Source: an uncultured Gammaproteobacteria bacterium (GTDB lineage Bacteria; Patescibacteriota; Microgenomatia; Levybacterales; GWA1-39-11). Taken from it: 59,491 bases of DNA. The number at the start of each line of letters is the position of its first letter. Within the stretch, counting starts at the first letter, position 1. The DNA lies in the NCBI GenBank assembly GCA_964627245.1, contig CAZVGS010000007.1, forward strand, positions 1 through 59,491, in the 5' to 3' direction. Below are positions 117 through 54,627 of the stretch, piece by piece. The translations under genes were made by a program, and so were the position numbers. The notes beneath the pieces were generated by a model that had not been told where the DNA came from, did no database searches, and was given only the letters and a program-made list of their open reading frames with translations.

Positions 117-1181
117 ATGAGAATCGGAATTTATTCTCCCTACCTTCAAACATTAACCGGCGGTGAAAAATATGTCTTTACGGCTGCTTCCTGTCTTTCG
201 AAAGAGCATGACGTTGTGGTATTTTGGGATGATAAAGAAATATTAGCCAGGGCTTCAAAACAATTCAATCTTGATTTGGAGAATGTAAAGGTGGTTGATG
301 ACATTTTTAGCCATAGTTACCCGCCTGCTAAGAGATTTCTTTCAAGTACCAAGTATGACAGAATATTTTTTCTTTCCGATGGGAGTATTCCTTTTATTTA
401 CTGCAAGCTTATTGTTCATTTTCAGTTTCCTGTTGAATGGGTTGATACTAACAGTTTTCTGTTTATGCTTAAGAATTCAAGGATTTCAAAAGTAGTCTGC
501 AATTCTTATTTCACTAAAAGGTACATTGATAAAAAATTTGGTAAAGATAGTTTTATTTTGTACCCTCCTGCTTCTACCAATAGCGAACCGCTTGGCGAAA
601 AGGAAAATCTTATATTAACAGTTGGGAGATTTAGTATTTTACCGAATGGAACCGATTTTAAAAAACTCGCTTTCCTAGCTGAAAGTTTCAAGAAGTTTCA
701 AAGAAAAAGATTGAAAGGTTGGAGAATGGCTATTGTAACTAGTGTTAAAGGGGAAGATGAAGATCGATTCAATAAATTTCAAAGTGAGATAAAAAACAGC
801 AAAATCACAATCTATAAAAATGCCAGCCATGAACAAATTATTTCTTTATATAAAAAGGCAAAAATATATTGGCATGCTTCAGGCTTTGGTGAAGATCTTT
901 TGAAATTTCCGGAAAGAGCTGAACACTTTGGTATATCAACAGTTGAAGCTATGTCGTATGGGGCAGTTCCTGTGGTTGTAGATGCCGGTGGTCAGCCGGA
1001 GATTGTTAAAGAAAATGAAAACGGGTATTTATGGAAGTCCGAGGATGAGCTCATAAAAAAAACACATAAGCTTGCCGTAAACAAAGATTTGTTTGCAAAT
1101 CTTCAAGAAGAGGGCGTTGAGACTTCGAAACGGTTTGGAAAAGAGAGGTTTTGTGAAGAACTCAATCATCTCATATGGTAG
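117..1181 (+). CDS. Glycosyltransferase family 4 (GT-B, retaining type)
   Basis: 354-aa ORF. The C-terminal half carries the GT4 donor-binding signature EHFGISTVEAMSYGAVPVVVDAGGQPEIV...NGYL (E-x7-E). Confidence 0.85.
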   Translation: MRIGIYSPYLQTLTGGEKYVFTAASCLSKEHDVVVFWDDKEILARASKQFNLDLENVKVVDDIFSHSYPPAKRFLSSTKYDRIFFLSDGSIPFIYCKLIVHFQFPVEWVDTNSFLFMLKNSRISKVVCNSYFTKRYIDKKFGKDSFILYPPASTNSEPLGEKENLILTVGRFSILPNGTDFKKLAFLAESFKKFQRKRLKGWRMAIVTSVKGEDEDRFNKFQSEIKNSKITIYKNASHEQIISLYKKAKIYWHASGFGEDLLKFPERAEHFGISTVEAMSYGAVPVVVDAGGQPEIVKENENGYLWKSEDELIKKTHKLAVNKDLFANLQEEGVETSKRFGKERFCEELNHLIW

Positions 1182-3406
1182 AAAAGTTAAAAAAACATTC
1201 AGCAGTTATTGTTCTTATTTTTTTTATTTGTATATTCTATTCGCCATTCCTGCTCTATTCAAAAGTTCCTATTCCATCCGATACTATCGTAGGACTCTAC
1301 AGTCCATATAGAGATTTCTACTCGAAAGACTATCCTAACGGAATACCATTCAAAAACTTTTTGATAACTGACCCGGTTAGGCAAACATATGTATGGAAGG
1401 AGTTGGCAGTAAGCCTTTACAAAAAGGCACAAATTCCTTCATGGAATCCATACGAAATGACAGGTAAGCCATTGGCCGGCAACTTTCAGTCGGGTGCGTT
1501 TTATCCTCTAAACATAATTCTTCTTTTTGGCAGATTTGATTTTTTCTGGTCTCTTTTTATCATCTCCCAAACACTTCTTTTTTCTCTATTCACCTATTTT
1601 TACTTAAGGAGTTTGAAAATTAGTGGATCCTCATCACTCCTCGGATCAACAGCAGCTGCTTTTAGCGGATTTAGCATAAGCTGGTTGGAATGGGGAAACG
1701 TATTGCATACCGTATTGTGGCTTCCTCTAATTCTGCTTTCAATAGATAAGCTTGTATCAAAAGGTGGCAATCGAAATTATATAGTTATCTTAAGTATATC
1801 CGTTATTTCATCAATGCTTGCGGGGCACCTGCAGTTTTTTTTCTACGTTATTCTTACTGCAATAGCTTATTTCATTTTAAGATGGTTTGAGAATGGAAAA
1901 AAGGGCATGAATATCCTGAAACTCCTGGGAGTTCTTTCAATATCTTTTTTAGTCGGGTCTGTACAGTTACTGCCCGCCTTGCAGTTTATTTCTCATTCTG
2001 CAAGAAGTATTGACCAAAACTTTCAGGACATTTCCGGCTGGTTTATTCCTTGGCAGAATTTAATTCAATTCGTTGCCCCTGATTTTTTTGGGAATCCTGC
2101 TACTCTTAACTACTTTGGGGAATGGAATTATGCTGAGTTTGTTGGGTACATAGGAATTGCTTCTTTGTGCTTTGTATTTTATTCTTTTCTAAAAAGAAGC
2201 TCGACCGTTGTATTTTTTGGCGCTGTAAGTGTATCGAGTTTGTTATTTGCGCTTCCTACCGGTATTTCAAGCATTCCATATGTATTAAATATTCCTCTTC
2301 TTTCAAGCGCTCAGCCTACGAGATTGATTTTCTTGGTATCTTTTTCCATGATTATTCTTTCATCTATTGGATTTGAGTATTTTGTTCATAGCAAACAAAA
2401 ATTATCTTTCAAAAATGTTTTTCCTGTCCTTTTAGTAGGAGTTATTTTCATGGCATTATGGATAATATCGCAATTTGGAACGGTTCTTTTTAAGGACCCA
2501 GGCGAAGCATCTATTGCAAAAAGAAATCTGATCTTTCCAAGTATAATATTTTCAGCATGCTTGGCTGGAATTTTACTGCTTTTAAATGTTAACAAAGATA
2601 GGGTAAGAAAAGCTGTATTTATTTTACTAATTTTTATTTCTTTTTTTGATTTGCTTCGTTTCTCACAAAAATTTACTCCTTTTTCTGAAGCTTCATATCT
2701 TTATCCTCAGACAAAGATAATAAATTTTTTGCAGTCTCGGGATGGAGTTTTTAGAATAGCATCACTTGACAGGCGTATTCTTGCACCCAATTTCTCAACT
2801 CATTACAAACTGCAGTCAATTGAAGGGTATGATCCTTTATACTTAAAATCTTACGCTGAGTTTATTGTTTCGCTTGAGAGAGGGAATGGGGATCTAAGTC
2901 AGCCGTACGGCTTTAACCGGATTATTACACCCCATAATTACAACTCTGTACTTTTCGATTTCTTGAATGTTAAATACGTTCTTGCGTATGAGAATTTACC
3001 TTCTGATAAATTTAGGTTTATTTATGAAGAAGGCGCGACTAAGGTATATGAGAATAAAAGTTATTTTGAAAGGGCATTTTTTGTAGAAAATATTGTTGTG
3101 CCAAACAGCATGGAAAAGCTATTTAACGTAGATCTTCATAAAACGGCCGTTGTTGACGGTTTTTACGGAGGATCAGAGTTTTCAAAGGGAGAAGCAACCA
3201 TAATAAGCTATAGTGAAAATGAAATTATAATTAAAACCAAAAATAATGGCGACGGGTTTTTAGTTATTTCAGACGCATACTACCCGACATGGAAAGCACG
3301 AATAGACGGTGTTGCAGCTGAAATACACAAAACAAATCATGCATTTAGAGGAATTGCTATTCCCAAAGGAGAGCACGTAGTTATAATGCAAAACAGCTTA
3401 TTGTAA
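1175..3406 (+). CDS. YfhO-like polytopic membrane protein (GT-C-type glycosyltransferase candidate)
   Basis: 743 aa. The ATG overlaps the upstream stop (ATGGTAG). Many hydrophobic helices span the first ~520 aa. A soluble C-terminal domain ends ISDAYYPTWKARIDGVAAEI...GIAIPKGEHVV, typical of the YfhO family. Confidence 0.65.
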   Translation: MVEKLKKHSAVIVLIFFICIFYSPFLLYSKVPIPSDTIVGLYSPYRDFYSKDYPNGIPFKNFLITDPVRQTYVWKELAVSLYKKAQIPSWNPYEMTGKPLAGNFQSGAFYPLNIILLFGRFDFFWSLFIISQTLLFSLFTYFYLRSLKISGSSSLLGSTAAAFSGFSISWLEWGNVLHTVLWLPLILLSIDKLVSKGGNRNYIVILSISVISSMLAGHLQFFFYVILTAIAYFILRWFENGKKGMNILKLLGVLSISFLVGSVQLLPALQFISHSARSIDQNFQDISGWFIPWQNLIQFVAPDFFGNPATLNYFGEWNYAEFVGYIGIASLCFVFYSFLKRSSTVVFFGAVSVSSLLFALPTGISSIPYVLNIPLLSSAQPTRLIFLVSFSMIILSSIGFEYFVHSKQKLSFKNVFPVLLVGVIFMALWIISQFGTVLFKDPGEASIAKRNLIFPSIIFSACLAGILLLLNVNKDRVRKAVFILLIFISFFDLLRFSQKFTPFSEASYLYPQTKIINFLQSRDGVFRIASLDRRILAPNFSTHYKLQSIEGYDPLYLKSYAEFIVSLERGNGDLSQPYGFNRIITPHNYNSVLFDFLNVKYVLAYENLPSDKFRFIYEEGATKVYENKSYFERAFFVENIVVPNSMEKLFNVDLHKTAVVDGFYGGSEFSKGEATIISYSENEIIIKTKNNGDGFLVISDAYYPTWKARIDGVAAEIHKTNHAFRGIAIPKGEHVVIMQNSLL

Positions 3407-3407: not shown

Positions 3408-4340
3408 ATGAAAATTGATATTATTATTCCAAACTACAACGGCTCTCATCTTATTGAGAATAACTTATCAAAAGTTATTCTGGCGCATAATAACTTTGAT
3501 GGCAGAATCATATTAGTTGACGATGGGTCACAAAAAGAAGAAAAAATACAACTAAGGAATCTTGTCAGAAAAATTAATTCCCCTAAATTAACCCTAATTG
3601 AACACTCAAAGAATAAAGGTTTTTCCTCGGCAATAAATACAGGTGTCAATGAATCAAACGCAGAATTTGTTGTTCTGCTGAATTCGGATGTAGTTCCAGC
3701 CGCTAATTTCTTGGGAGTACTGGTCGAAAAAATGAAGAGAGACGATTTGTTATTCGGTCTGGGGTGTCTTGACGAAAGTGTAGAAAAGGAAAGAGTTGTA
3801 ATGCGGGGAAGGGGATTGGGTTTTTGGAAAAAAGGAATGCTTTTGCACAAAAAAGGAGACGTTGGGTCAGATGATACCTTCTGGATATCCGGGGGGAGCT
3901 GTATTCTAAGGAGGGCAATTTTTGTTAAGCTCAATGGAATGGATGAGCTTTTCAACCCTTTTTACTGGGAAGACATAGACCTTTCATATAGAGCTAGAAA
4001 AGCAGGATACCATATTGGATTTTGCAAAGAGTCGGTTGTCAGGCACTATCACGAAGAAGGGGCGATAAAAACAGGTTTTACAAGTTCTAAGATAACTAAA
4101 ATTGCATACAGAAATCAATTCATTTTTGTTTGGAAGAACATAACATCTCTTCATTTGTTGGCAAATCATATTCTTTTTTTGCCGGTAAACATTGTTAACG
4201 CAATCAAAGGCGGTGATAGCGCTTTTATTTACGGCTTTATTCTTGCCGTGTTAAAGTTACCTGCTATAATAAAAAAAAGAAAGATTCAAAGAGATTTTTA
4301 TAAGGTAGAGGATATAGAGCTTTTAAATCAAATTTCATGA
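3408..4340 (+). CDS. Glycosyltransferase family 2 (rhamnosyltransferase-like subgroup)
   Basis: Motifs IIIPNYNGSHLI, VDDGS, LLNSDV and FYWEDIDLSYRARKAGY indicate a GT-A fold GT2. Confidence 0.85.
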   Translation: MKIDIIIPNYNGSHLIENNLSKVILAHNNFDGRIILVDDGSQKEEKIQLRNLVRKINSPKLTLIEHSKNKGFSSAINTGVNESNAEFVVLLNSDVVPAANFLGVLVEKMKRDDLLFGLGCLDESVEKERVVMRGRGLGFWKKGMLLHKKGDVGSDDTFWISGGSCILRRAIFVKLNGMDELFNPFYWEDIDLSYRARKAGYHIGFCKESVVRHYHEEGAIKTGFTSSKITKIAYRNQFIFVWKNITSLHLLANHILFLPVNIVNAIKGGDSAFIYGFILAVLKLPAIIKKRKIQRDFYKVEDIELLNQIS

Positions 4341-5068
4341 ATTTATCCAAAAAGACATTATCAATAGTTATCCCCGTTTATAATGAGGAAAAAACAATTG
4401 GGTTTGTTCTGGATCAATTGGAGAAAGTTAATTTTACTGGAGTGACTAAGGAAATTGTGGTCGTGAACGACGGGTCAAGCGACAATTCGGTTAAGATCAT
4501 ACAAGAACGGAAGAATAAAATTTCAGGTTTAAGATTTTTTGATCATAAAATAAATCAAGGGAAGGGGGCAGCTGTTCAGACGGGTCTAAAAAATGCTAAG
4601 GGTGATATATTGATGATCCAGGATGCTGATCTTGAGTACGACCCTAACGATATTCCAAGGCTTCTCAAGCCAATACTGGACAGGCATGCAGATATTGTTT
4701 ATGGAACAAGGCTTAGGCGGATGCCAAACCTCAAAAAAGAGGAAAAAAGTATACGCTTTTTACTTCATTATCTGGGTAACAGGTGGTTGAGCTTGGTTAC
4801 CACAATACTTTACGGGAGTGTTGTAACCGATATGGAGACATGCTACAAACTTTTTACAAAAGAAGCGTTCAAGGGAATTAAATTAAAATCAAGAGGATTT
4901 GATTTGGAACCCGAGATAACCGCTAAATTCTTAAAGAAGGGATTAAAAATTATGGAACTGGATATTGTTACTAAACCACGGGGGTATGATGAAGGAAAAA
5001 AACTCAATACTTTTAGAGACGGATTTAAGGCAATCTGGACGCTATTAAAGTATAGATTTAGTTCATGA
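4337..5068 (+). CDS. GT2, Dpm1/GtrB/ArnC-type polyprenyl-phosphate sugar synthase
   Basis: 243 aa, ATGA-coupled. Motifs: LSIVIPVYNEEKTI, VVVNDGSSDNS, NQGKGAAVQTGL, IQDADLEYDP, DMETCYKLF. No TM segment seen. Confidence 0.7.
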   Translation: MNLSKKTLSIVIPVYNEEKTIGFVLDQLEKVNFTGVTKEIVVVNDGSSDNSVKIIQERKNKISGLRFFDHKINQGKGAAVQTGLKNAKGDILMIQDADLEYDPNDIPRLLKPILDRHADIVYGTRLRRMPNLKKEEKSIRFLLHYLGNRWLSLVTTILYGSVVTDMETCYKLFTKEAFKGIKLKSRGFDLEPEITAKFLKKGLKIMELDIVTKPRGYDEGKKLNTFRDGFKAIWTLLKYRFSS

Positions 5069-6312
5069 CAAATACCAGATTTTCAGTTTCAAGTATAGTA
5101 CTGCCGGCACTTATTGTGCCGATAATAATGACCTACCAGATATTTCCTGGTGATACGAATTACATTCAATTTGGTCTAATATTTCTTGCACTTTTTTTCA
5201 ATTTTTTTCTTGATGCATTTAGTATTTCTGATAAAAAATATTACCTTTTTAAGTATTTCTTGTTTTGGTCTGTTTTGCTACTAGCTGTAGGGGGTGCATT
5301 TGTTTCAACAGTTATCGTAAGACATAATGTTGCACCGGTATTTCAAATTCACGATATTATCCTTCAGCTAGAAGCGGCAATACGGTTTTTTCTTGATGGT
5401 ATAAATCCTTGGGCTGCAACTTACCACAATACGCTAATGGCTAGCTGGCATTACAGTGACACCATGGTTAATCCGGCATTGTACCATTTTGTAATGATGC
5501 CCTTTTACCTTCTTTTCTCACTACCTTTTTATTATTTATCTAATCATTCTATAGGTTATTTCGATGGAAGAATTCCGCTTTTTATATTGTATTTTATTAT
5601 GTGTATCTCAACTTTTGTATTTACAAAAAAACCGGAAAATAAATTGCTCTTCACTTCTTTACTAGCGCTAAATCCTGCAATGTTTTCCTATACACTGGAG
5701 GGGAGAAGCGATGTTTATATGTTCGCTTTTTTGATTTTAGGGTTTATTACGCTTACAAAAAAAATGTATGGAATGTCTGGAGTCGTAATGGCACTTGCCT
5801 TCACAGTAAAGCAATCTGTTTGGCCCTTGCTGCCATTGTATGTTGCATACGTTTACTTTAAGTCCAGGAATGTAAAGTTGACCTTAATGAGGATAAGTTC
5901 TTTCTTTATTGTTACACTATTATTAACGTTGCCTTTTTTCCTTTGGGACCCAATATCATTTCTCAACAGTACGGTTTTCTATCTCTCGGGCAATACCGAG
6001 CATAGCTATCCGATATCAGGTTACGGGCTTGGTGTGCTGCTGCATCAGCTTGGAATAATCAAGGATCTGATATCACCTTACCCTTTTGTTTTTTGGCAGA
6101 TAGTAATTGTCATACCCCTCATGGTTTTTCTAATCAAGTACTTAAAACGGAATCAAAATGTTAGAACTCTAATCTTTACTTATGGAATTTTGCTTTTTGT
6201 TTTTTGGTATTTATCCCGATACTTCAATAACAGCCACGTAGGTTATTTAACCATGGTTTTTACAACAGCATATTTTTGGCCAGAAAGTGAAAAAGAAAAA
6301 AGTAAAAAATAA
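5065..6312 (+). CDS. Polytopic membrane protein, DUF2029/GT87 (PimE-like) GT-C candidate
   Basis: 415 aa, about 10 hydrophobic helices. The first-loop motif HDIILQLEAAIRFFLDGINPW and FTVKQSVWPLLPL resemble the GT87 family. Assignment is by eye only. Confidence 0.45.
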   Translation: MTNTRFSVSSIVLPALIVPIIMTYQIFPGDTNYIQFGLIFLALFFNFFLDAFSISDKKYYLFKYFLFWSVLLLAVGGAFVSTVIVRHNVAPVFQIHDIILQLEAAIRFFLDGINPWAATYHNTLMASWHYSDTMVNPALYHFVMMPFYLLFSLPFYYLSNHSIGYFDGRIPLFILYFIMCISTFVFTKKPENKLLFTSLLALNPAMFSYTLEGRSDVYMFAFLILGFITLTKKMYGMSGVVMALAFTVKQSVWPLLPLYVAYVYFKSRNVKLTLMRISSFFIVTLLLTLPFFLWDPISFLNSTVFYLSGNTEHSYPISGYGLGVLLHQLGIIKDLISPYPFVFWQIVIVIPLMVFLIKYLKRNQNVRTLIFTYGILLFVFWYLSRYFNNSHVGYLTMVFTTAYFWPESEKEKSKK

Positions 6313-7813
6313 AGATCGATTTTTGGAGAGTATTCTTAAGAAGAGTAGAGTCTTTCTGAAGGATAACGTAATGCTCCTCACGATTTTGATACTCTCTTTT
6401 TTTCTGCGGTTTGTTAACTACTCTAACAGGTGGGGTATCGCGTACGACCAAGCAAGAGATGCCATAGTAGTAAATGAGGCAATTGAAAGGTTTGTTTTGC
6501 CATTGATCGGTCCATTTTCAGCTTCGGGTCCTTTTGTTTTTGGCCCGCAATGGTACTGGATAAATATTCTTGTTGTTTTTGTATCTCCTCAATGGATGCT
6601 CGTCCCCTGGTTTTTTCAGGGGGCGGTTTCTTCGCTATTACCTATAATTGCATTTATGGCAGGTAGGCAAATTGCAGGTAAGGGCTTTGGATTATTATTT
6701 GCTTTATTTACAGCGATTTCACCAGCTGTCATAGCCCAATCAACAAATCTTACCTATTCAACGATGGTTGGATTTGTTTGCTTTCTTCTGTTTTTAACTG
6801 TCGTGCGGTATTGGTACAAACCGAGTGATAAAAAACTATTTATAATTTCGTTTCTGGTTGGTTTGTCAATCAACATACACTTTCAAGCTATAGGAACCCT
6901 CGCATTAATCCCATTGATAATCCTTTTTAAGGGATTGTCATTTAGAAAAATTCTGATTTCCGTTCTAGGTCTGGCAGTGCCATTTACACCGATTATTATA
7001 TTTGATTTTATTTCTGATCACTTTCAGACCCGAAATTTAGTTGACTATTTTTTCCTTAACCGGGGAGTTTCCGGACTTCCAAAGAGATGGCTAACATTTG
7101 GTCTTGAGACGATACCAAATATATGGGCCCATATTATTGGGGGGAATATTTTTGCTGCATATTTTGTAGGAATAGGATTAGCTATATTAGGGTTATTCTT
7201 TTCCTTCAAGCGAAAGATGCAAGGCATAGTAGTATTCTTCATGCTTTATTTAGGTGTAAATATAGTAGCTCTGAGATACTTTAAGGGAGGATTGTTTGAC
7301 GCTTTTTTTACCTATCTTCATCCGGTTGTAATTTTTCTATCTGCATGGATGTTATTCCAATTGTTGAAATTGCACAGAAAGGGGGGAATAATCCTTCTTA
7401 TTGCGTTAACTTTTACAACGTTATATAAGACATATGTTGAGATAGTCAATAGTACCAATCTTAAAGCCTCTGCAACTGAGAAGTATGTTGAAGAGCTGAT
7501 AAGGAAATACCCTGGAACAAAATTTGCAGTTTATGATCATAAGTACAAGTATGGTCATGATTCTTTAACTTTGGTTTTGTACTTGAATTCAGAGGGTTTA
7601 CTGAAAAATGACGGGCATAGGATAGGCGTAGTTGTATCTACTTCGAGTGCAATAATGCCTGTCGTGCACTTCAAGCCCATATATGGGAACATAAGGAGTT
7701 TACAGATTTATGACTTGAATTCCTCTTCATCGGCCGAACTTGAGAGTGCTGAGTGGGCTCCTGTTAACCCGTCATACATATATGAGTCTACAGTAGAATG
7801 GTATAAAAAATAG
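6287..7813 (+). CDS. Polytopic GT-C-like membrane protein (subfamily X of the tandem array)
   Basis: 508 aa from GTG 6287; TTG 6323 or ATG 6371 are alternative starts. First external loop WGIAYDQARDAIVVNEAI...GPQWYW. Paralogous to the genes at 11127 and 12640. Confidence 0.55.
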   Translation: MKKKKVKNKDRFLESILKKSRVFLKDNVMLLTILILSFFLRFVNYSNRWGIAYDQARDAIVVNEAIERFVLPLIGPFSASGPFVFGPQWYWINILVVFVSPQWMLVPWFFQGAVSSLLPIIAFMAGRQIAGKGFGLLFALFTAISPAVIAQSTNLTYSTMVGFVCFLLFLTVVRYWYKPSDKKLFIISFLVGLSINIHFQAIGTLALIPLIILFKGLSFRKILISVLGLAVPFTPIIIFDFISDHFQTRNLVDYFFLNRGVSGLPKRWLTFGLETIPNIWAHIIGGNIFAAYFVGIGLAILGLFFSFKRKMQGIVVFFMLYLGVNIVALRYFKGGLFDAFFTYLHPVVIFLSAWMLFQLLKLHRKGGIILLIALTFTTLYKTYVEIVNSTNLKASATEKYVEELIRKYPGTKFAVYDHKYKYGHDSLTLVLYLNSEGLLKNDGHRIGVVVSTSSAIMPVVHFKPIYGNIRSLQIYDLNSSSSAELESAEWAPVNPSYIYESTVEWYKK

Positions 7814-16323: not shown

Positions 16324-16325
16324 TT

Positions 16326-37243: not shown

Positions 37244-37810
37244 ATGAAAATTGGAATTGACATAAGCCAGCTTGCATACAGAAATACTGGAGTTGCGAAT
37301 TACTTGAAAAATTTGCTTCAAGAATTAGTTAAAAGTGAGCACGAATTTGTTTTGTTTTATTCCTCTCTAAGACAGCCTGTGCCCCAAAGTGTTTTGGATA
37401 TCTCTAAAAAAGAGAATGTGAAATTGGTTAAAAAAAGGTTCCCGAATTCATTACTCAATCTTTTATGGAACGATCTTCACAAAATTCCCATAGAGTCATT
37501 TATTGGAGATGTTGATCTTTTTATAACTTCAGACTGGTCCGAGCCTCCAACAAAAAAAGCAAAAAAAGCAACGATAATTTATGACTTGATTGTTTATAAA
37601 TATCCTGAAGAAACTCATAACAAAACTAGTGTAAAATTATCGGATTTAACACTTTCTTCTAATATTGTAAATATCCAAAAGAAGAAATTATTCTGGGTTA
37701 AAGATGAGTGCAGTATAGTATTTTGCATCTCGGAGTCTACTAAAAAAGATGTTGTTGAAATTCTTGGTATTTCTGAAGACAGGGTTAAGGTTATATACCC
37801 GGGTTGTTAG
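37244..37810 (+). pseudogene. Truncated GT4 glycosyltransferase (N-terminal Rossmann domain only)
   Basis: 188 aa. The N-terminus MKIGIDISQLAYRNTGVANYLKNLL parallels the intact GT4 genes at 39404 and 48692. It stops at ...RVKVIYPGC*, where the others continue (KIEVIYEGFDP...). The E-x7-E donor domain is absent. Confidence 0.55.
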
Positions 37811-41120: not shown

Positions 41121-41121
41121 T

Positions 41122-46641: not shown

Positions 46642-47807
46642 ATGTTCTTTTTGTAACCTATGATTTTCCATTTCCAACAAATTCCGGCGGAAAAAACCGT
46701 GCCTACCATCTTATCAAACATACTGCAAAAAATGCCAATATATTTCTCTTCTCATTTGTAAGGGAGGACTATAATCCTGACTACAATAAAGAGATATTCG
46801 AGTTGGGGGTAAAAGATATTAAAGTTTTTAAGAGAGAAAAACTTTCTTCTTTTTCAAATATTCCAAAAACAATCTTAAATAATTCATCAATTTTCAAAAC
46901 CCTATATTTTGATGCCGGCGTTGAATGGAGTATGAAGGAGTATATGAAGAAGCACAAAATAGACGTTGTTCATTTCGAGTCGTCTTACACCGGGTTTTAC
47001 ATTGGAAAGAAGTTGGGAATGACAGGAGCCAAACAAGTGCTAGGTACGGAGAATATAGAGTTTCAGCTGTACTACGATTATGCAGCAAATACTAAAAAAA
47101 TTTACTTAAAACCCTTCGTCAAGTTTCAAGCCGGAAGACTAAAAAATGAAGAGTTAATGATGGTAAAAAACGCAGATAAGGTTACAACAGTTACGGAAGA
47201 AGAAGCAAGAAAATGGGAGAGTCTTACGGGTAAGAAATGCGATGTGGTAGCAAATGGAATTGAACCGAATACTTTCTCTTACAGTTTTGACCCGAAAATT
47301 AAAAGCAACATACTTTTTGTCGGCAATTTTAGTTATTTCCCAAATATAGATGGGATTAATTTTTTTTACAAAGAAGCATTTGATAAGTTAAGTAAAGACC
47401 TCACTCTTACTGTGATCGGCAAGGACTGCAGTAAAATTCTGAATTTTGACAATGAAAGAATCATTAAAAAAGATTTTGTTGACGATATAATTACAGAATA
47501 CAGGAAAGCAGATATTATGATATTTCCGATAAGAATAGGCGGGGGGACAAATTTCAAAATCTTGGAAGCAATGGCACTTGGAATACCGATCGTAGCAAAT
47601 CCTGAGAGACTGGCGGGACTAAATGCAGTTTCAGGTAAGCATTTTTTGGAAGCAACAACGGGAGAAGAGTATGCAGAAAAAATAGAATTATTGTATAAAG
47701 ATAAAAAATTAAGAGAGGAATTAGCCCAGCAGGGAAGAAAATTAATTGACAAATACTTTTCATGGGAAAATATAGGACATGATCTTTTGAAGGTTTGGAT
47801 AAGCTAA
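46638..47807 (+). CDS. Glycosyltransferase family 4
   Basis: 389 aa. Motifs: FPFPTNSGGKNR and GGGTNFKILEAMALGIPIVANPERLAGL. Confidence 0.8.
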   Translation: MNVLFVTYDFPFPTNSGGKNRAYHLIKHTAKNANIFLFSFVREDYNPDYNKEIFELGVKDIKVFKREKLSSFSNIPKTILNNSSIFKTLYFDAGVEWSMKEYMKKHKIDVVHFESSYTGFYIGKKLGMTGAKQVLGTENIEFQLYYDYAANTKKIYLKPFVKFQAGRLKNEELMMVKNADKVTTVTEEEARKWESLTGKKCDVVANGIEPNTFSYSFDPKIKSNILFVGNFSYFPNIDGINFFYKEAFDKLSKDLTLTVIGKDCSKILNFDNERIIKKDFVDDIITEYRKADIMIFPIRIGGGTNFKILEAMALGIPIVANPERLAGLNAVSGKHFLEATTGEEYAEKIELLYKDKKLREELAQQGRKLIDKYFSWENIGHDLLKVWIS

Positions 47808-47810: not shown

Positions 47811-48695
47811 ATGGACTTGTCAATAATAATTGTTTCTTACAATTCCGAGAATACTATCAAAGACTGCATTGATTCTGTTCTTAATACTATCAAAAAACAT
47901 TCATTCGAAATTATTGTTTCTGACAATAGTGAGAACGAGATCACAAATGAATTAATAAGTAAAGAATATGGAAAAAATTCCAAACTCGTATATATTAAGA
48001 ATGACTCCAATTTAGGCTTTTCAAAGGCTAATAATGTTGGAATAAAACAATCTAAAGGCGAATTCGTACTTTTTTTGAATCCTGACACTAAAGTTTATGA
48101 GAAAACAGTAGACGGTATGATTGAATTTATGAAAAAAAATCCTGACTGCGGTGTTTCAACTTGTTTTGTGGAGTTACCCGGAGGAAAATTGGATCAAGCC
48201 TCCCACAGAGGGTTTCCAACGCCTCTTCGATCTTTGAGTTATTTTACAGGGCTTTCAAAGTTTTTTTCAAAAAATAAATTATTAGGCGGTTATTCTATGC
48301 TGTATAAGAACATGGAGGAGACGCACGAGATCGACTCTGCTGCCGGTTCATTCATGCTTGTGCCAAGAAAAGTCGGGAACAGGATAAAATGGTGGGATGA
48401 AGATTATTTTTTTTACGGAGAAGATCTGGATTTTTGCTTCAGGGTGAAAGAGCTTGGGTATAAAGTATATTTTGTCCCGGAATTCAAGGCGCTTCACCTG
48501 AAGGGAGTCTCAAGCGGTATAAAGAAAGAATCGATGGGAATAACCAAGGCGTCAAATAGAACAAAAAATCTTGCAATGCATCATAGATTTAAGGCAATGG
48601 AAATCTTTTACGATAAGCATTACAAAAACAAATACCCGGGCTTTCTTAGGGCATTCATAATCATGGGTATAAAATTCAAAAGGGCCATTTCATGA
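47811..48695 (+). CDS. Glycosyltransferase family 2 (rhamnosyltransferase-like)
   Basis: 294 aa. Motifs: LSIIIVSYNSENTI, IIVSDNSEN, LFLNPDT, YFFYGEDLDFCFRVKELGY. Confidence 0.85.
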   Translation: MDLSIIIVSYNSENTIKDCIDSVLNTIKKHSFEIIVSDNSENEITNELISKEYGKNSKLVYIKNDSNLGFSKANNVGIKQSKGEFVLFLNPDTKVYEKTVDGMIEFMKKNPDCGVSTCFVELPGGKLDQASHRGFPTPLRSLSYFTGLSKFFSKNKLLGGYSMLYKNMEETHEIDSAAGSFMLVPRKVGNRIKWWDEDYFFYGEDLDFCFRVKELGYKVYFVPEFKALHLKGVSSGIKKESMGITKASNRTKNLAMHHRFKAMEIFYDKHYKNKYPGFLRAFIIMGIKFKRAIS

Positions 48696-49783
48696 AAAAG
48701 ATAGGAATTGACGCTAGACTTTGGAACGAAAGCGGTGTAGGAAGATACATTAGGAGTTTGGTTAATGGAATTGATGATAGAAAAATTGCTGACCAATATA
48801 CGATTTTTTTGACGAAAGAGAACTACAATTCGGTTAGTTTCAAAAATCCAAATATTACAAAAAAAATGGCCGATGTAAGGTGGCATACAATATCCGAGCA
48901 ATGGAAAATGAAGAAGGTGCTAGATGACGAAAAACTGGACCTTGTGCATTTCCCGTATTTTTCCTATCCGGTTTTTTATAACCGTCCTTTTGTCATAACA
49001 ATTCACGATCTTATAATTGATAATTTTCCCACAGGCGTAGCAAGCTCACTGCCTTATCCGTTGTATAGACTTAAGCACTTAGGTTACAAGAATATCGTTA
49101 AAAGAGCGGTTTCCAATTCAAAGAAAATTATTGTTCCTTCATATGCTACATCGGATGATTTGGTAAAAACTTACAAAGTCAATGAAAGCAAAATAGAAGT
49201 AATATATGAAGGGTTTGATCCGTTAATTTCTGGTTCAAAAAATCCGAAAAAACTTGTTTCCAGTAATTACTTACTGTATGTTGGGAACGCTTATCCTCAT
49301 AAAAATCTGCAGGTTCTTTTTGAGGCTTTCAATATTCTTAAGAAAAGTTTGGATATTGATCTGGTCTGCGTGGGAAGAAGTGACTTCTTCTACAAGAGAC
49401 TTAAAAAAAATAAAACTGAAGATGTATTTTTTTTGCATAATGTTGATGATTCTTCACTTTTCGATTATTATACAAACGCAAGATTATTTGTAATGCCAAG
49501 CTTAATGGAGGGATTTGGCCTGCCTTTGCTTGAGGCAATGAATCTTTCCTGCCCCGTTATAGCTTCAAACATAAAAGCGCTAAAAGAAATAGGAGGAGAC
49601 GCATGTTTGTATTTTGATCCTTCTGATCCGTCAGAGTTAGCTGATGTTGCAAATAAAGTATTGGTCAATAAAGACGTAAGAAACAAACTTATAACAAATG
49701 GACAAATCCGTTCAAAAAAATATTCGTGGGATAAATGTATCGCTGAAACGCTTAAAGTCTATAAGAGTTGCTATAGTGTATGA
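48692..49783 (+). CDS. Glycosyltransferase family 4
   Basis: 363 aa. Signature MEGFGLPLLEAMNLSCPVIASNIKALKEIGGDACLYFDP. Confidence 0.85.
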   Translation: MKKIGIDARLWNESGVGRYIRSLVNGIDDRKIADQYTIFLTKENYNSVSFKNPNITKKMADVRWHTISEQWKMKKVLDDEKLDLVHFPYFSYPVFYNRPFVITIHDLIIDNFPTGVASSLPYPLYRLKHLGYKNIVKRAVSNSKKIIVPSYATSDDLVKTYKVNESKIEVIYEGFDPLISGSKNPKKLVSSNYLLYVGNAYPHKNLQVLFEAFNILKKSLDIDLVCVGRSDFFYKRLKKNKTEDVFFLHNVDDSSLFDYYTNARLFVMPSLMEGFGLPLLEAMNLSCPVIASNIKALKEIGGDACLYFDPSDPSELADVANKVLVNKDVRNKLITNGQIRSKKYSWDKCIAETLKVYKSCYSV

Positions 49784-50846
49784 CAGAGTTAATAAAATAG
49801 GTGGTGCCGAGCGGGTTCTTGAATCTCTGAGAGAAATATTTCCAAATTCTGTACTTTATACATCAGTTTACAATAAAAAGTCTACACCATGGGCGAAAAA
49901 ATTTAAGATACAAACTTCATTTTTGCAAAAGATCCCAATACTTAATTTACGACATGAATTTATTCCCTATCTTATGCCGATTGCTTTTGAATCATTCAGG
50001 TTCGATGGATTTGAACTTGTTGTTTCGGTTACCAGCGAAGCTGCCAAAGGAGTGATTGTTCCCCCGGGAGTTACTCATGTATGTATATGTCTTACCCCTA
50101 CCAGGTATCTTTGGAGCGGATATAAGTCTTATTTCAAAAGCGCTTTGTTAAAAACAATAGCATTTCCTCTTGTATGGTACCTTAGAAAGTGGGATCTGGC
50201 AGCATCTAAAAGACCGGATTACTATATTGCTATCTCTGAAACTGTAAAAAAAAGAATAGCAAAATATTATAAAAGGGAGAGCATGGTTATTTATCCTCCA
50301 TCGGATAGACTCTTTAGAGCAAAAGGAGGAAAAATGGAAATCAACGAAAAAAATTACTTTTTGGTTGTTTCAAGGCTTGTTGATTACAAGAGGGTCGATT
50401 TGGCAGTTAAGGCTTGCACAAAGCTCAAGCTTCCATTGGTTGTAATAGGACAAGGCAGCGAATTTGAAAAACTTGATGCAATTGCGGGTGATACGGTTAT
50501 TTTTAAGGGCAAAGTTAGCGATGACGAGCTTATTGCCTATTATAAGAATTGCAGAGCGCTGATATTTCCGGGTATTGAGGATTTTGGCATAACCATGGTT
50601 GAAGTCCAGAAAGCGGGAAAGCCGGTGATAGCTTACGGAAGTGGGGGGGCAAAGGAGGTAGTTATCAACGGAAAAACCGGTACTTTTTTTGAAAATCAGA
50701 GTGTGTCCTCGCTTTGCAGTGTATTGCTAAAATTCAAAGATAATCGTTATAATGTAAAAGATTGCAGGAATAACGCAAGCCGTTTTTCCGAGAGAATTTT
50801 TAAGAAAAGTATACTATCATTTGTTTCGGATAAAATAAAAATATGA
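49698..50846 (+). CDS. Glycosyltransferase family 4
   Basis: 382 aa. Motifs: RVAIVYDRVNKIGGAERVL and IEDFGITMVEVQKAGKPVIAYGSGGAKEVV. ATG 49698 gives an unusual 86-nt overlap, so the true start is uncertain (see findings). Confidence 0.8.
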   Translation: MDKSVQKNIRGINVSLKRLKSIRVAIVYDRVNKIGGAERVLESLREIFPNSVLYTSVYNKKSTPWAKKFKIQTSFLQKIPILNLRHEFIPYLMPIAFESFRFDGFELVVSVTSEAAKGVIVPPGVTHVCICLTPTRYLWSGYKSYFKSALLKTIAFPLVWYLRKWDLAASKRPDYYIAISETVKKRIAKYYKRESMVIYPPSDRLFRAKGGKMEINEKNYFLVVSRLVDYKRVDLAVKACTKLKLPLVVIGQGSEFEKLDAIAGDTVIFKGKVSDDELIAYYKNCRALIFPGIEDFGITMVEVQKAGKPVIAYGSGGAKEVVINGKTGTFFENQSVSSLCSVLLKFKDNRYNVKDCRNNASRFSERIFKKSILSFVSDKIKI

Positions 50847-51925
50847 AAGTAGTTATTTTTGCTGGAGGTGTAGGTACTAGATTGTGGCCGTTATCAAGAA
50901 AGCACACGCCAAAGCAGTTTGAAAAGATTATTGGCGACCGGTCAACGCTTCAGCTTGCATTCGACCGCGTGCGTCCTATATTTGATCCTAAAGACATTTT
51001 TATATCATCTGGAGACAGGTATAAGGATGTTTTACTGCAGCAATTGCCTGAAATTCCAAAAGAAAACTTTATCCTCGAGCCTGAAATGCGGGATGTCGGA
51101 GCAGCAGTTGGTCTTGTTTCGGCAGTTTTTCAAAAGATTTCACCTGATGAACCTTTTATTATCTTGTGGAGTGACCACTTGGTAAAAAACGAAGCTTTAT
51201 TCAGAAGCATTTTGCAAGCTGCCGGAAAGGTGCTTGAGGAGGATCCGGATAAAATCGTGTTTATTGGACAAAGATCAAGGTTTGCAAGTCAGAATTTGGG
51301 CTGGATTGAATTCGGCAATAAAATAAAAGATGTGGATGGTGTAGACCTCTTTGAATTTAAGAGTCTTCATTATCGTCCGGATATTGATAAGGCTGAAACA
51401 TTTCACCAGAGCGTTAATCATGCCTGGAATCCTGGGTACTTTGCAACGACTCCAAATTTTATTATGAGTTTATATCAAAGGCATGCTCCCGAAATGCACA
51501 GCATGCTTGTTAAGATACAAGAATCATGGGGAAGTGAAGGATTTGACAGTGTCTTAAGAGAAGTCTTTCCTCAGCTTGAGAAGGTGTCTTTCGACAATTT
51601 AATTCTTGAAAAGATTGATGAGAATGACGGATTTGTGATAGGAGCGGATCTCGGATGGAGCGATATTGGTGCTTGGGAGGCTTTAAAGGAGGCTTTAGCT
51701 GAGGGGGATGATGAAAATGTAACGAGGGGGAAAGTTATGCTTGAGGAGTCCGTTGACAGTTTGATATTCAATTACAACGAGCAGATGGTTGTCGGAATAG
51801 ATCTTAAGGATATGCTTGTAATAAATACAGAGGATGTCTTGTTAATATGCCCTAAAGAGTCGGTTCCTAAGATAAAAAAACTTGTAGAAAGTCTTTCAGG
51901 TACTGAGCATGAGTCGTTAACCTAG
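50843..51925 (+). CDS. manC: Mannose-1-phosphate guanylyltransferase (no PMI/cupin domain)
   Basis: 360 aa. N-terminus VIFAGGVGTRLWPLSRKHTPKQF, with a nucleotidyltransferase fold pattern throughout. Confidence 0.85.
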   Translation: MKVVIFAGGVGTRLWPLSRKHTPKQFEKIIGDRSTLQLAFDRVRPIFDPKDIFISSGDRYKDVLLQQLPEIPKENFILEPEMRDVGAAVGLVSAVFQKISPDEPFIILWSDHLVKNEALFRSILQAAGKVLEEDPDKIVFIGQRSRFASQNLGWIEFGNKIKDVDGVDLFEFKSLHYRPDIDKAETFHQSVNHAWNPGYFATTPNFIMSLYQRHAPEMHSMLVKIQESWGSEGFDSVLREVFPQLEKVSFDNLILEKIDENDGFVIGADLGWSDIGAWEALKEALAEGDDENVTRGKVMLEESVDSLIFNYNEQMVVGIDLKDMLVINTEDVLLICPKESVPKIKKLVESLSGTEHESLT

Positions 51926-51926: not shown

Positions 51927-52565
51927 ATGATGTATGATGTTTCCAAACGCCTGCTTGATGTTCTGATATCTATAACAGCTCTAATTTTTTTTTCACCCAT
52001 AATTTTGCTTACTGCCATATTTATCAAAATTGATACTAAAGGACCTCTATTGGCAGATACGCCTCCTAGAATAGGAAGAAAAGGACGTGCATTCAGGATG
52101 TATAAATTCCGCTCGATGGTAGCAAATGCACATGAAATCTTAACAAGTGACCCTAAGTACAAAAACCTTTTAGATGAGTATAAAAAAGGAGGTTACAAAC
52201 TGAAAGGGGATCCGAGAATAACTAGAGTCGGAAGGTTCATACGCAAATACTCTTTTGATGAATTACCTCAATTCATCAATGTTATAAAGGGGGATATGAG
52301 TGTTGTGGGTCCCAGGGCTTATTATCCTGATGAACTCAGGGATCAGCAAAAAAAATATCCGCACACAAGAGATGCTGTAAAAGTTGTGTTGTCTGTCAAG
52401 CCGGGGATTACGGGAGTTTGGCAAGTATCGGGCAGAAGCGAAATTAATTTTGACAAACGCATCCAATTGGATGCTCACTACGCGAAAAAAAGATCTATAC
52501 TTTATGACCTGCTGATACTTTTCAAAACTCCTTTCGCGATGTTTTCCGGCAAAGGTGCTATGTGA
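51927..52565 (+). CDS. Small monotopic phosphoglycosyl transferase (Bac_transf; PglC/WbaP C-terminal type), polyprenyl-phosphate hexose-1-phosphate transferase
   Basis: 212 aa. Motifs: KRLLDVLISITALIFFSPIILLTAIFIK, MYKFRSM, DELPQFINVIKGDMSVVGPR, KPGITGVWQVSGR. Confidence 0.9.
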   Translation: MMYDVSKRLLDVLISITALIFFSPIILLTAIFIKIDTKGPLLADTPPRIGRKGRAFRMYKFRSMVANAHEILTSDPKYKNLLDEYKKGGYKLKGDPRITRVGRFIRKYSFDELPQFINVIKGDMSVVGPRAYYPDELRDQQKKYPHTRDAVKVVLSVKPGITGVWQVSGRSEINFDKRIQLDAHYAKKRSILYDLLILFKTPFAMFSGKGAM

Positions 52566-52668: not shown

Positions 52669-54627
52669 ATGGAAGATAAAGGATTTCAAAAAATTGATCT
52701 CACGAAAAAACAGGATACTGTTGAGTCGGTGCCAATGGAAGATCGCCTTATGAAAAGAAAAAGTAAATTTAAATTTCGGACAAAAAACAAGAAGCTTCTT
52801 ACCTGGCTGTTTGGTGCAGCAGCGGTAATTCTAGTTCTTGGTATTTTTTCAGGAATAAAAGCATTTGGTGTTTATAAGCAGGCGACTAAAGTAAAAGCAC
52901 AGGCAAGTGTTGCTTTTGCAAAATTGAAAGAACAAGATATAGAATCCGCCAGGAAAGAATTGGCATTAACTCAAACCGAAGTGGAAGGCTTAAAGAAGGA
53001 ATTAAATGGTGTCGCTTTTCTAAAATTTATTCCTCTTGTCTCATGGTATTACAACGATGTGACTCATGCAGTTGAAGCTTCATCTCATGGGATAAATGCA
53101 GGAATAATCGGGGCAGATGCACTGATTCCATATGTTGATGTGTTAGGACTTAAAGGAAAAGGGACATTTACAGGTGGGACAGCGCAAGACAGGATAAGAA
53201 CTGCGGTTCAGACAATGGGTAAGGTGGTTCCTAAGATTGACGAAATAGAAAAAGAATTGGTTGCTGCACAAAAAGAGATTGATCAGATAGATCCCGGTCA
53301 TTACCCGCCGATAGGAGATATAAAAAAGGTTAAAGAAGGACTCCAGCAGATAAAGGATGTAGCCGACGGAGCGGTTGTGGCTGTTGAACAAGGTAAACCT
53401 TTGATAAAAGCCCTTCCCTCGCTTCTTGGAGAAAAGGAGGGCAAAAAATATCTTTTGCTCTTCCAAAACGACGCAGAACTCCGGCCGACAGGAGGATTTC
53501 TTACCTATTATGCAATATTTAGAGTAGAGGAAGGGGACATAAAAGTTGATAGTTCAAACGACATATACTCGCTTGACAACAGTATTTCACCCCACCCTCC
53601 CGCTCCGGATATTATCAAGAAGTATTTTCCAAGCGTCAAAAGTGCATTTATAAGGGACAGTAATTTGTCACCGGACTTTGTTAAATCGATGGAAGATTTT
53701 AACAAGCTTTATGAAGAATCATCCGCTCCAAAGGATGTCGATGGAATTATTGCAATTGACACACACTTTTTCGTTAATATAATACGGATTTTGGGCGAAG
53801 TTGAGGCTTCAGGTCTCAAATTTACGGCAGATAACGAGCCCAAGTGCGATTGTCCTCAGGTTGTTTATTCACTTGAGAATGAAATCTCAAGGCCTGTTAA
53901 CTATGTTAAGACAGACCGAAAAGGACTTTTGGGGGATCTTATGTTTGCCACTCTTGATAAGGCACTTAAGTCTTCACCGAAATTGTACTGGGGACAGCTT
54001 TTCCAGCAATTTATAGTTGATGCAAATGAGAAAAATATTATGTTTTATCTATATGATAAAGAAGCCCAAAAAGGTATAGAAGCATTGAATTGGGCGGGGA
54101 GGGTCCAAACCTTTGAAGGAGATTATTTATACGTTAACGATGCTAATTTCGGAGGTCAAAAGTCAAATCTTTTTGTGGATAAGACCATGACGGTTGATTA
54201 CAACACAAATAATGGTGAAATCAAGAAGAAAGTAACGATAGAATATAAGAACCCCGAACCTCATTCGGACTGCAATTTGGAACGGGGGGGGCTTTGTCTT
54301 AACGCAACTTTAAGGAATTATCAGCGTCTTTTGGTTCCAGAAGGAAGTGTTTTGGAAAAATCTAAAGGGTCACAGGTAAAAGTCGGAACAAGCAAGGATC
54401 TTGGCAAGACTGTTTTTGACTCGTTTTTTACGGTTAACCCTCAAGGAAAAGCATCAATAGAATATGAATACACTTTACCTTTTAAAGTTGAAGACGGAAC
54501 TCTGCCTGTTATGATTCAAAAACAGCCGGGAGTGGAGGTAATACCGACTAAAATTAATGTTAACGGTAAAAAGGTGCAGGAATTTGATCTAAGATCGGAT
54601 ACAAAGCTTGATCTTTCCGGTTTTTAA
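52669..54627 (+). CDS. DUF4012-like membrane-anchored extracytoplasmic protein
   Basis: 652 aa. Basic N-terminus, a single TM (LLTWLFGAAAVILVLGIFSGI) and a coiled-coil-like stretch. Motif LLLFQNDAELRPTGGFLTYYAIFRV is characteristic of DUF4012. Confidence 0.65.
   Translation: MEDKGFQKIDLTKKQDTVESVPMEDRLMKRKSKFKFRTKNKKLLTWLFGAAAVILVLGIFSGIKAFGVYKQATKVKAQASVAFAKLKEQDIESARKELALTQTEVEGLKKELNGVAFLKFIPLVSWYYNDVTHAVEASSHGINAGIIGADALIPYVDVLGLKGKGTFTGGTAQDRIRTAVQTMGKVVPKIDEIEKELVAAQKEIDQIDPGHYPPIGDIKKVKEGLQQIKDVADGAVVAVEQGKPLIKALPSLLGEKEGKKYLLLFQNDAELRPTGGFLTYYAIFRVEEGDIKVDSSNDIYSLDNSISPHPPAPDIIKKYFPSVKSAFIRDSNLSPDFVKSMEDFNKLYEESSAPKDVDGIIAIDTHFFVNIIRILGEVEASGLKFTADNEPKCDCPQVVYSLENEISRPVNYVKTDRKGLLGDLMFATLDKALKSSPKLYWGQLFQQFIVDANEKNIMFYLYDKEAQKGIEALNWAGRVQTFEGDYLYVNDANFGGQKSNLFVDKTMTVDYNTNNGEIKKKVTIEYKNPEPHSDCNLERGGLCLNATLRNYQRLLVPEGSVLEKSKGSQVKVGTSKDLGKTVFDSFFTVNPQGKASIEYEYTLPFKVEDGTLPVMIQKQPGVEVIPTKINVNGKKVQEFDLRSDTKLDLSGF
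54284..54291 (+). repeat. G8 homopolymer inside the DUF4012 CDS
   Basis: cgg-ggg-ggg-ctt read directly (ERGGLC). Confidence 0.95.

Follow-up and report, generated by a model that had tools for sequence, protein, structure and literature searches.

A conserved, GT-C-rich locus with a probable role in envelope glycopolymer synthesis in Levybacteria

Introduction

What would a bacterium with a genome of about 1 Mb be building with fourteen polytopic membrane glycosyltransferases of the GT-C type encoded in a single run of genes? The question is raised by contig CAZVGS010000007.1 (assembly GCA_964627245.1; Patescibacteriota, Microgenomatia, Levybacterales in GTDB), which is referred to in its full length of 59,491 nucleotides as the window, and within it by a locus that extends from position 117 to 54627. 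Patescibacteria, also termed Candidate Phyla Radiation (CPR) bacteria, represent a large share of bacterial diversity, and their envelope chemistry is essentially unknown. The analysis described here suggests, as a reading that is fairly likely to be correct, that this Levybacteria/Microgenomates bacterium makes its main cell-envelope glycopolymer from the locus, in modules shared across the lineage, and that a Wzx/Wzy-type core would be combined with an extracytoplasmic layer of GT-C enzymes.

The listing of open reading frames (ORFs) places 45 of them between 117 and 54627, with 44 on the + strand and a sole gene, g32 (37791-39323), on the minus strand; the genes below lie on the + strand unless stated otherwise. 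All ORFs have at least 100 aa with the exception of a 70-aa membrane ORF at 36125-36337, and the others are numbered g1 to g44 in their order along the locus. Coding density is 99.4%, and start and stop codons overlap at 16 junctions (14 overlaps of four bases, of the ATGA or GTGA type, and two of one base). An earlier annotation made from the letters without database searches, termed here the sequence-only reading, had proposed the same extent (about 54.5 kb, 45 genes, one of them off the + strand) with 17 such junctions, one more than the recount gives. Its wider description of a very large co-directional envelope-glycan locus agrees with both the gene content and the strand layout found here. 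Family assignments were obtained by Pfam and NCBIfam scans of every ORF in the window.

The GT-C proteins

All 14 polytopic proteins show multiple transmembrane (TM) segments in a hydropathy scan, and six of them exceed Pfam thresholds. These are g2 (743 aa; 1175-3406; YfhO, 2.7e-29) and the PMT_2 or PMT members g7 (7847-9454; PMT 8e-12, PMT_2 1.4e-11), g10 (12640-13914; PMT_2 7e-07), g11 (13832-15529; PMT_2 3.5e-09), g17 (20450-21787; PMT_2 8.4e-13) and g37 (45166-46641; PMT_2 2.1e-14, PMT 3.1e-12). Three others are PMT_2-like by relationship to these: g8 (9451-11130) is a paralogue of g7 and g11 (BLASTP identities of 35%, 1e-83, and 34%, 8e-87, respectively), g9 (11127-12647) combines a sub-threshold PMT_2 match with an hhalign probability of 91% to g10, and g6 (508 aa; 6287-7813) aligns with g10 at 88% over 386 columns and has a weak TMEM260-like match. 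The GT87/PIG-M-like assignment of g5 (415 aa; 5065-6312), which has no Pfam hit of its own, comes from its family of 776 relatives: 16 of the 35 sampled match Pfam GT87 and some others PMT_2, ALG3 or Alg6, the family aligns with that of g7 at 96% (hhalign), and its profile matches the solved GPI mannosyltransferase 1 in the PDB (1.8e-7). This was the only profile to find a solved relative in PDB sequence searches, which returned no match, with single proteins or family profiles, for g27, g29, g36, g32, g30 or the g7/g8/g11 family.

Structure models (AlphaFold, compared by Foldseek) cover two of the 14 proteins, g27 and g36, and both are helical bundles. g27 (768 aa; 30236-32542) belongs to a family of approximately 770 aa without a Pfam model, the 111 relatives of which are, where named, mostly Patescibacteria; as far as found here, the family appears to be confined to CPR relatives. 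The g27 model, built on 30 homologues, reached a pLDDT of 85.9 and a pTM of 0.88, and its best Foldseek matches are STT3, AftD, PglB, AglB and AftA, all with probability 1.0 and E values down to 2e-6, whereas transporters matched the modelled proteins with probabilities below 0.15. At the level of profiles, the g27 family aligns with the YfhO family and with the g9 family, in both cases at 96% (hhalign), consistent with a GT-C enzyme distantly similar to YfhO, AftD and STT3. Membership of g27 in the oligosaccharyltransferases was considered and rejected because the WWDxG motif of these enzymes is absent: a search for W[WYF]DxG found it in none of the 14 proteins, and it is missing from the g27 family consensus. 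The paralogue g29 (656 aa; 34158-36128) aligns with the g27 family over its full length at 99.7% (hhalign). A sub-threshold NCBIfam match to the 'MmpA family trehalose lipid delivery protein' (1.2e-08, residues 296-459) was also seen in g29 and, more weakly, in g27, and may reflect shared GT-C-like helices.

The weakest of the 14 is g32, regarded as a probable GT-C. None of its 404 relatives carries a Pfam domain, and the few that are named are mostly CPR members. When deeper profiles were built from the fetched loci, g32 aligned with the g7 family at 88% and the g11 family at 82% (hhalign), and no match came from direct comparison of its profile with those of g27, g36 and g5. It does possess a nearly invariant acidic pair, D26-D27, following the first TM segment, and comparable motifs stand shortly after the first TM segment of other members: D38-D39 in g27 (within a G37-D38-D39 motif nearly invariant in its family), D590-D591 in g36, D36-E37 in g7/g8/g11 (g8 numbering; residues 33-34 in g7) and an HD motif in g5. 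These conserved acidic motifs would lie on the extracytoplasmic side of the membrane.

Altogether, Pfam matches, paralogy, profile comparison and the two structure models assign 13 of the 14 proteins firmly, and g32 probably, to the GT-C superfamily, as the sequence-only reading had proposed; the links found by hidden Markov model, profile and structure are to GT-C enzymes and not to transporters or unrelated folds. Three of the families involved, of the g27/g29, g32 and g5 types, have no Pfam model.

A probable Wzx/Wzy-type core and the g36 fusion

The elements of a lipid-linked assembly pathway are found in the same locus. g43 (51927-52565) is a small priming phosphoglycosyl transferase (PGT; Pfam Bac_transf 2.1e-60, with NCBIfam matches to EPS_sugtrans and the WbaP C-terminal domain), and is followed by g44 (52669-54627), a DUF4012 protein (Pfam 5e-24) with a single N-terminal TM segment (41-70) and a large extracytoplasmic part. 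The polytopic g15 (18349-19620) is a Wzx/MOP-family flippase, with Polysacc_synt_3 (1.1e-10) and Polysacc_synt (6.2e-08) both above threshold. Sugar nucleotides would be supplied by four enzymes: the UDP-glucose 4-epimerase GalE (g13, 16242-17315; NCBIfam TIGR01179, 398 bits against a cut-off of 262), a DegT/RfbH-like pyridoxal-phosphate enzyme that would modify nucleotide sugars (g20, 23948-25117; Pfam DegT_DnrJ_EryC1 2.8e-63; NCBIfam RfbH 219 bits, below cut-off), an RmlD-like NDP-sugar reductase (g23, 26888-27793; Pfam RmlD_sub_bind 1.3e-46) and a mannose-1-phosphate guanylyltransferase-like protein for GDP-mannose supply (g42, 50843-51925; Pfam NTP_transferase and a ManC beta-helix, with an NCBIfam GMP_PMI match of 1.4e-61 in the transferase part). 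The alignment of g13 with GalE starts only at residue 34.

Donors for the GT-C enzymes might come from two soluble GT2 proteins. g4 (4337-5068), a candidate polyprenyl-phosphate-hexose synthase, has its best NCBIfam matches to AglJ (5.7e-36, 124 bits), PpgS, ArnC and a dolichyl-phosphate hexose transferase, and in the related loci compared it always stands just upstream of the GT-C array. g16 (19669-20439) is its paralogue (33% identity), with PpgS/ArnC-like NCBIfam matches.

The core and the GT-C layer appear to meet in g36 (1064 aa; 41985-45179), which is predicted to be a WaaL/Wzy-fold domain (residues ~1-555) fused to a PMT_2-like GT-C domain (~556-1064). The prediction is drawn from the AlphaFold model (pLDDT 76.6), for which Foldseek returned the O-antigen ligase WaaL (PDB 7TPG, of the GT-C_B class; TMt 0.64) as well as STT3, PglB and Pmt, and from the C-terminal half, in the family of which D590-D591 is invariant and which aligns with the g7 and g11 families at 95% (hhalign). 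The Wzy/WaaL-like domain noted in the sequence-only reading is thus seen in the N-terminal half, by the Foldseek match to WaaL and by a weak Wzy_C match (residues 220-294; 19.5 bits, below the cut-off of 31.7). WaaL-type proteins have themselves been counted as GT-C_B (PMC10920833). More than 1500 relatives of g36 were found, the named ones being Levybacteria or other Patescibacteria; Levybacteria have the fused form (more than 100 relatives of approximately 1065 aa), and in the more distant Patescibacterium of locus L001 the halves form adjacent, separate genes (19239-20912; 20857-22299). The g36 family shares a conserved loop motif, D-N-N-Y-L, with D458, N459 and N460 invariant, and this is presumably the position of the HN-YL motif of WaaL-type proteins. 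The likeness to WaaL concerns the N-terminal fold; WaaL would differ in this motif and differs in having no fused PMT_2-like domain, and CPR bacteria are not known to possess the lipid A-core that is its canonical acceptor.

Conservation among Microgenomates

When genomes, one for each species, were scanned with the g7/g8/g11 alignment, 79 loci (designated by L numbers) were found, and their ORFs were labelled by their best window-protein match. Loci with informative titles belong to Levybacteria, Roizmanbacteria, Gottesmanbacteria, Curtissbacteria, Chisholmbacteria or unclassified Patescibacteria. Most of the remaining loci, with many contigs in L007-L084 that clearly have Patescibacteria/Levybacteria gene content, are titled 'uncultured Gammaproteobacteria bacterium'; this title appears to be a placeholder or a wrong label. 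The recurring order is g1 (GT4)-g2 (YfhO)-g3-g4-[PMT_2-like GT-C array]-g12-g13-g14-g15 (Wzx)-g16-g18, with g1-g2-g3-g4 forming a syntenic block in many loci and g12 kept at the 3' end of the array.

Since the same order and arrays recur in the related loci, the GT-C battery is a lineage-wide trait of Microgenomates, with the window at the high end. The 47 loci that reach 20 kb or more have a median of six GT-C genes per ~21.6 kb (range 2-9), and the window has nine in the equivalent span; some genomes carry two adjacent array-bearing spans (L029 and L040; L019 and L049) that sum to 12-14 GT-C genes. The locus is not peculiar to this genome, as dozens of Microgenomates species share the arrangement. 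The suspicion of a reduced genome in the sequence-only reading fits a CPR host whose relatives have contigs of 0.84-1.08 Mb, from which it follows that the locus would take up approximately 5% of the genome.

The comparison also bears on the assembly. CAYTCO010000013.1 (37.4 kb; L008 and L085), from a related species, is collinear with g1-g33, including the minus-strand g32; in L004 and L005 the collinear stretch runs from g30 to the downstream gene recO; and L086 matches g30-g39, up to its contig end. Collinearity of independent assemblies across the whole span excludes a contig mis-join, and GC content is even along the window (0.32-0.40), with no sign of a chimera.

A proposed mechanism and its alternatives

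In the mechanism proposed, g43 would prime undecaprenyl phosphate, on which GT4 and GT2 enzymes in the cytoplasm, together with the methyltransferases and the O-acetyltransferase g34, would assemble an oligosaccharide linked to undecaprenyl diphosphate. They would draw on UDP-galactose (g13), GDP-mannose (g42) and a deoxy or amino sugar in modified form (g20 and g23). The flippase g15 would export this lipid-linked oligosaccharide, and the N-terminal domain of g36 would polymerise it or ligate it to an acceptor. In parallel, g4 and g16 (AglJ/PpgS/ArnC-like) may make polyprenyl-phosphate-monosaccharide donors, with which 13-14 GT-C enzymes would extend, branch or decorate the product outside the membrane: three YfhO-like (g2, g27, g29), one GT87/PIG-M-like (g5) and about ten PMT_2/ArnT-like (g6-g11, g17, g32, g37 and the C-terminal domain of g36). 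Mannose is the probable donor sugar, as the ManC-like g42 and the family types (PMT, GT87 and PIG-M) suggest. What was observed is the gene content, a GT-C fold or homology, a PGT, a Wzx and a WaaL-like domain in the locus, and a conserved gene order; from these we infer which donors are used, how the steps follow one another, what the acceptor is and whether the product is a single polymer or more than one, and sequence does not discriminate between a glycan and a protein acceptor.

The acidic motifs, the family matches of g4, the tight coupling of genes, the synteny and the pairing of the PGT with a DUF4012 protein would all speak for this mechanism. Several findings weigh against it. g4 scores below every NCBIfam equivalog cut-off. 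The paralogues g19 and g21, considered as GtrB-type synthases without finding support, resemble generic GT2 proteins, which are also their nearest solved relatives (5tze, 6h1j), and not GtrB. The window contains no match to a GtrA or ArnE/F-type polyprenyl-phosphate-sugar flippase. A search of its 49 long ORFs (E <= 0.01) found neither a Wzz-type polysaccharide co-polymerase (PCP) nor a LytR-CpsA-Psr (LCP) ligase (LytR_cpsA_psr), either of which could lie elsewhere in the genome. The Wzy_C match of g36 is below the Pfam threshold, and the protein might act as polymerase, ligase or O-oligosaccharyltransferase. By position alone, g44 and the 70-aa membrane ORF are candidates for polyprenyl-phosphate-sugar flipping, chain-length control or anchoring.

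The separability of the modules also weighs against a single pathway. In CAYRKM010000001.1, an array-type block (L057, 687-708 kb) and a core block (L005, 759-782 kb) lie about 50 kb apart, from which it follows that the modules are separable and the 'super-locus' is probably several juxtaposed modules. This opens the possibility of two or three independent pathways that are merely adjacent, each with its own product: a YfhO/GT-C array (g1-g12), a Wzx-dependent variable heteropolysaccharide (g13-g29) and a conserved core (g30-g44). Such an arrangement, which we take seriously while giving it rather less than an even chance, would also account for a middle region that varies among relatives beside an invariant g30-g45, and for a number of array GT-C genes that ranges from 2 to 9 per locus. 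However, the window has one priming PGT and one Wzx only, which implies that the modules share initiation and export unless further copies exist elsewhere in the genome, and all blocks are contiguous, co-directional and translationally coupled both here and in CAYTCO010000013.1.

The acceptor could also be protein. PMT-like GT-C enzymes might O-mannosylate surface proteins such as pilins or an S-layer, g36 might act as a PglL/PilO-like O-oligosaccharyltransferase for en bloc transfer, or both. g7 and g37 match the PMT family PF02366 itself, the Wzy_C domain also occurs in the O-oligosaccharyltransferases PglL and PilO, g27 and g36 both have the STT3 subunit of oligosaccharyltransferase complexes high among their structural matches, and no LCP ligase for attachment to peptidoglycan was found in the window; in addition, pilus and surface proteins are abundant in CPR genomes (PMC6744442). 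However, the 14 proteins lack WWDxG, the glycan-acting AftD and AftA match g27 as well as STT3 does, and the hhalign match of g27 at 96% is to YfhO, for which an action on teichoic acids is known. Moreover, PMT_2 also spans ArnT-type enzymes that act on lipids or glycans, and the locus includes no gene for an acceptor protein. Protein glycosylation is judged unlikely. Far less credible still is an artefact, whether a chimeric mis-join or a set of transporters mistaken for GT-C enzymes: beyond the five polytopic proteins that had no Pfam match at the outset, nothing was found to support it, and it was rejected on the uniform GC content, the synteny with independent assemblies across the whole locus and the Foldseek matches to GT-C folds at probability 1.0, as opposed to below 0.15 for transporters.

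Comparison with known systems

For the envelope glycopolymer pathway proposed here, the closest parallels are found in several known systems. The assembly of mycobacterial and corynebacterial arabinogalactan and of lipomannan/lipoarabinomannan (AftA-D, EmbA-C, PimE, MptA-C) shares with it the use of a cytoplasmic lipid-linked primer followed by many external GT-C enzymes with polyprenyl-phosphate donors, as well as the clustering of GT-C genes; g27 has AftD and AftA among its best structural matches, and g5 falls in the GT87/PimE-like group. However, the Pfam scans of the window proteins revealed neither the genes for decaprenyl-phosphate-arabinose (a UbiA-type phosphoribosyl pyrophosphate transferase, DprE1/E2) nor an ABC exporter (no ABC_tran match), and a Wzx and a WaaL/Wzy-like domain are found instead, in an unrelated lineage with a genome of approximately 1 Mb. 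The cell-wall cluster of Mycobacterium tuberculosis holds about 5-7 GT-C genes in ~35 kb, roughly half the density of the 14 in 54 kb seen here, and no characterised locus is known to be denser than the present one.

In three-component systems (GtrA/GtrB/GtrC; CsbB/GtcA/YfhO; GacI-L; lactococcal Csd), a GT2 enzyme makes a polyprenyl-phosphate sugar that a GT-C enzyme transfers outside, and the window offers a true YfhO member (g2) and a synthase-like protein (g4). It differs in the lack of a detectable GtrA/GtcA-type flippase in the window and, in place of 1:1:1 sets, in having one or two candidate synthases for up to 13 GT-C enzymes in tandem arrays. With the Wzx/Wzy loci for capsule, exopolysaccharide (EPS) or O-antigen, the locus has in common a Bac_transf gene beside DUF4012, a Wzx, enzymes of the GT2 and GT4 families, nucleotide-sugar genes, an acetyltransferase and, by its sub-threshold match, a putative Wzy_C-type protein. 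The pairing of a PGT with DUF4012 is also found in the EPS cluster of Bifidobacterium longum 105-A (PMC5412050). CPR and Gram-positive bacteria show an enrichment of DUF4012 (PMC6744442). Unlike these loci, the window has no Wzz/PCP or tyrosine kinase, its Wzy/WaaL-like domain is fused to a GT-C domain, and it encodes 13 extra GT-C enzymes.

The absence of a GtrA flippase, an arabinose-donor pathway, an ABC exporter and an LCP ligase among the window proteins indicates that the locus is a member of neither the Gtr/YfhO nor the mycobacterial system. The sequence-only reading had noted the lack of an ABC exporter, Wzz and LCP ligase, which holds for the window proteins in the Pfam scans, and had concluded that the locus fits no textbook pathway. 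This is not sustained: g43, g15 and the WaaL/Wzy-fold N-terminal half of g36 would constitute a Wzx/Wzy core, and the GT-C layer together with g4 follows the polyprenyl-phosphate-sugar logic of Gtr/YfhO and mycobacterial wall assembly. The related suggestion of an undescribed system holds in part: the locus is uncharacterised, its number of GT-C enzymes is unusually high, and literature searches found no published description of GT-C arrays in CPR bacteria, while its logic is better classified as a combination of known schemes.

Other genes of the locus and its flanks

The remaining enzymes fit the tally proposed from sequence, as Pfam and NCBIfam reproduce the nine GT2, seven GT4, one acetyltransferase and four nucleotide-sugar enzymes, and the domain scans find the MOP flippase, the initiating PGT, the DUF4012 protein and the 177-aa RecO. 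In addition to g4 and g16, the GT2 set comprises g3 (3408-4340; Glycos_transf_2 1.5e-20; one C-terminal TM segment, 270-289), g12 (15550-16323; 7.2e-20), g19 (22908-23951; Pfam GT2; two C-terminal TM segments, 287-344), its paralogue g21 (25117-26157; Pfam GT2; 40% identity, likewise with two C-terminal TM segments), g24 (27790-28725; 7e-29), g35 (41095-41988; 7.2e-22) and g39 (47811-48695; 2.2e-23). The GT4 enzymes, with Glycos_transf_1 matches unless stated, are g1 (117-1181; 8.9e-22), g14 (17321-18367; 6.1e-24), g18 (21801-22907; 2.9e-35), g33 (39404-40513; 2.9e-43), g38 (46638-47807; Glyco_trans_1_4 1.9e-18), g40 (48692-49783; 2.4e-30) and g41 (49698-50846; 2e-28). g34 (40515-41120) is a WcaF-like hexapeptide O-acetyltransferase (Pfam Hexapep; NCBIfam WcaF family 1.1e-25). 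The conserved 298-aa protein g30 (36347-37243) has weak matches to Pfam GT2 (0.041) and AglJ (0.0071) and is possibly a divergent GT-A/GT2-like enzyme; homologues with 65% identity occupy the same position in L004 and L005.

Of the four methyltransferases claimed, three are clear: g22 (26136-26891), of the FkbM family (NCBIfam fkbM_fam, 91 bits, above cut-off), g25 (28739-29446), a SAM methyltransferase (Methyltransf_11 1.2e-12), and g28. The fourth, g26 (29397-30239), is a probable FkbM-like enzyme with a weak match only (fkbM_fam 4.9e-07, below cut-off), and its homologue in L002 carries Methyltransf_21. In g28 (32542-34161), an unknown membrane-associated N-domain of ~330 aa is fused to a SAM methyltransferase (Methyltransf_11 at residues 362-451). 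In L002 (12234-13322; 15065-15715) and L085 (12322-13314; 15256-15918), each half is a gene of its own, one on either side of the g29 homologue, and a local rearrangement and fusion in the window genome follows from this.

The sequence-only reading had described g31 (188 aa; 37244-37810; Pfam Glyco_transf_4) as a GT4 fragment. It corresponds to a GT4 N-terminal domain that stands alone as a separate ORF of 176-181 aa in all five relatives examined (L001, L004, L005, L085, L086), with a full-length GT4 directly downstream in four of them. This conservation as a stand-alone ORF, mostly adjoining a full-length GT4, points away from a pseudogene or debris and towards a GT-B half that is functional, as a split or an accessory protein. 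The 70-aa ORF at 36125-36337, which overlaps the stop codon of g29 by four bases, has two or three predicted membrane spans and no family match; ORFs of 70-75 aa stand at the matching position in L004, L005 and L085 (compared by position and size only), and from its position a role as partner subunit or as small flippase is conceivable.

Some gene models begin at the earliest possible codon. The ORF starts at 13832, 16242, 29397 and 49698 overlap the upstream gene by 50-86 nt, and the true starts probably lie further downstream; g11, which shares 83 nt with g10 when read from its TTG codon, may in fact begin, for example, at 13883, as in the sequence-only reading. Downstream, the locus is bounded by the gene for RecO (177 aa; 54631-55164, + strand; Pfam RecO_N), which is a conserved boundary, being the same neighbour in L004 and L005. 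RecO is followed by the gene for glycyl-tRNA synthetase and by three ORFs (201, 247 and 429 aa; 56638-59316, + strand) with no Pfam match, the first two of which have an N-terminal TM segment. No tRNA genes were detected in the window.

Implications for the biology of Microgenomates

The value of the locus lies in its lineage-wide conservation in genomes of approximately 1 Mb, in its GT-C families without Pfam models and in the fusion of a WaaL/Wzy-type domain to a GT-C domain. These families (with g27 offering a confident model), the fusion protein and the PGT-DUF4012 pair are targets for heterologous tests. The layout is conserved in Levybacteria, Roizmanbacteria, Gottesmanbacteria, Curtissbacteria and Chisholmbacteria and, together with the share of the genome that it occupies, makes the locus a strong candidate for the pathway of the main surface polymer, which is the likely interface with hosts and phages.

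A more far-reaching proposal, offered tentatively and with more doubt than confidence, is that the principal wall or surface polymer of Microgenomates is for the most part made outside the membrane, by the densest bacterial GT-C battery known, including three Pfam-less families and a polymerase/ligase-GT-C fusion. If true, a genome of about 1 Mb would have evolved an independent counterpart of mycobacterial arabinogalactan/lipomannan assembly, and the variable GT-C array would set a surface glycan code for host or phage recognition or serve general protein glycosylation.

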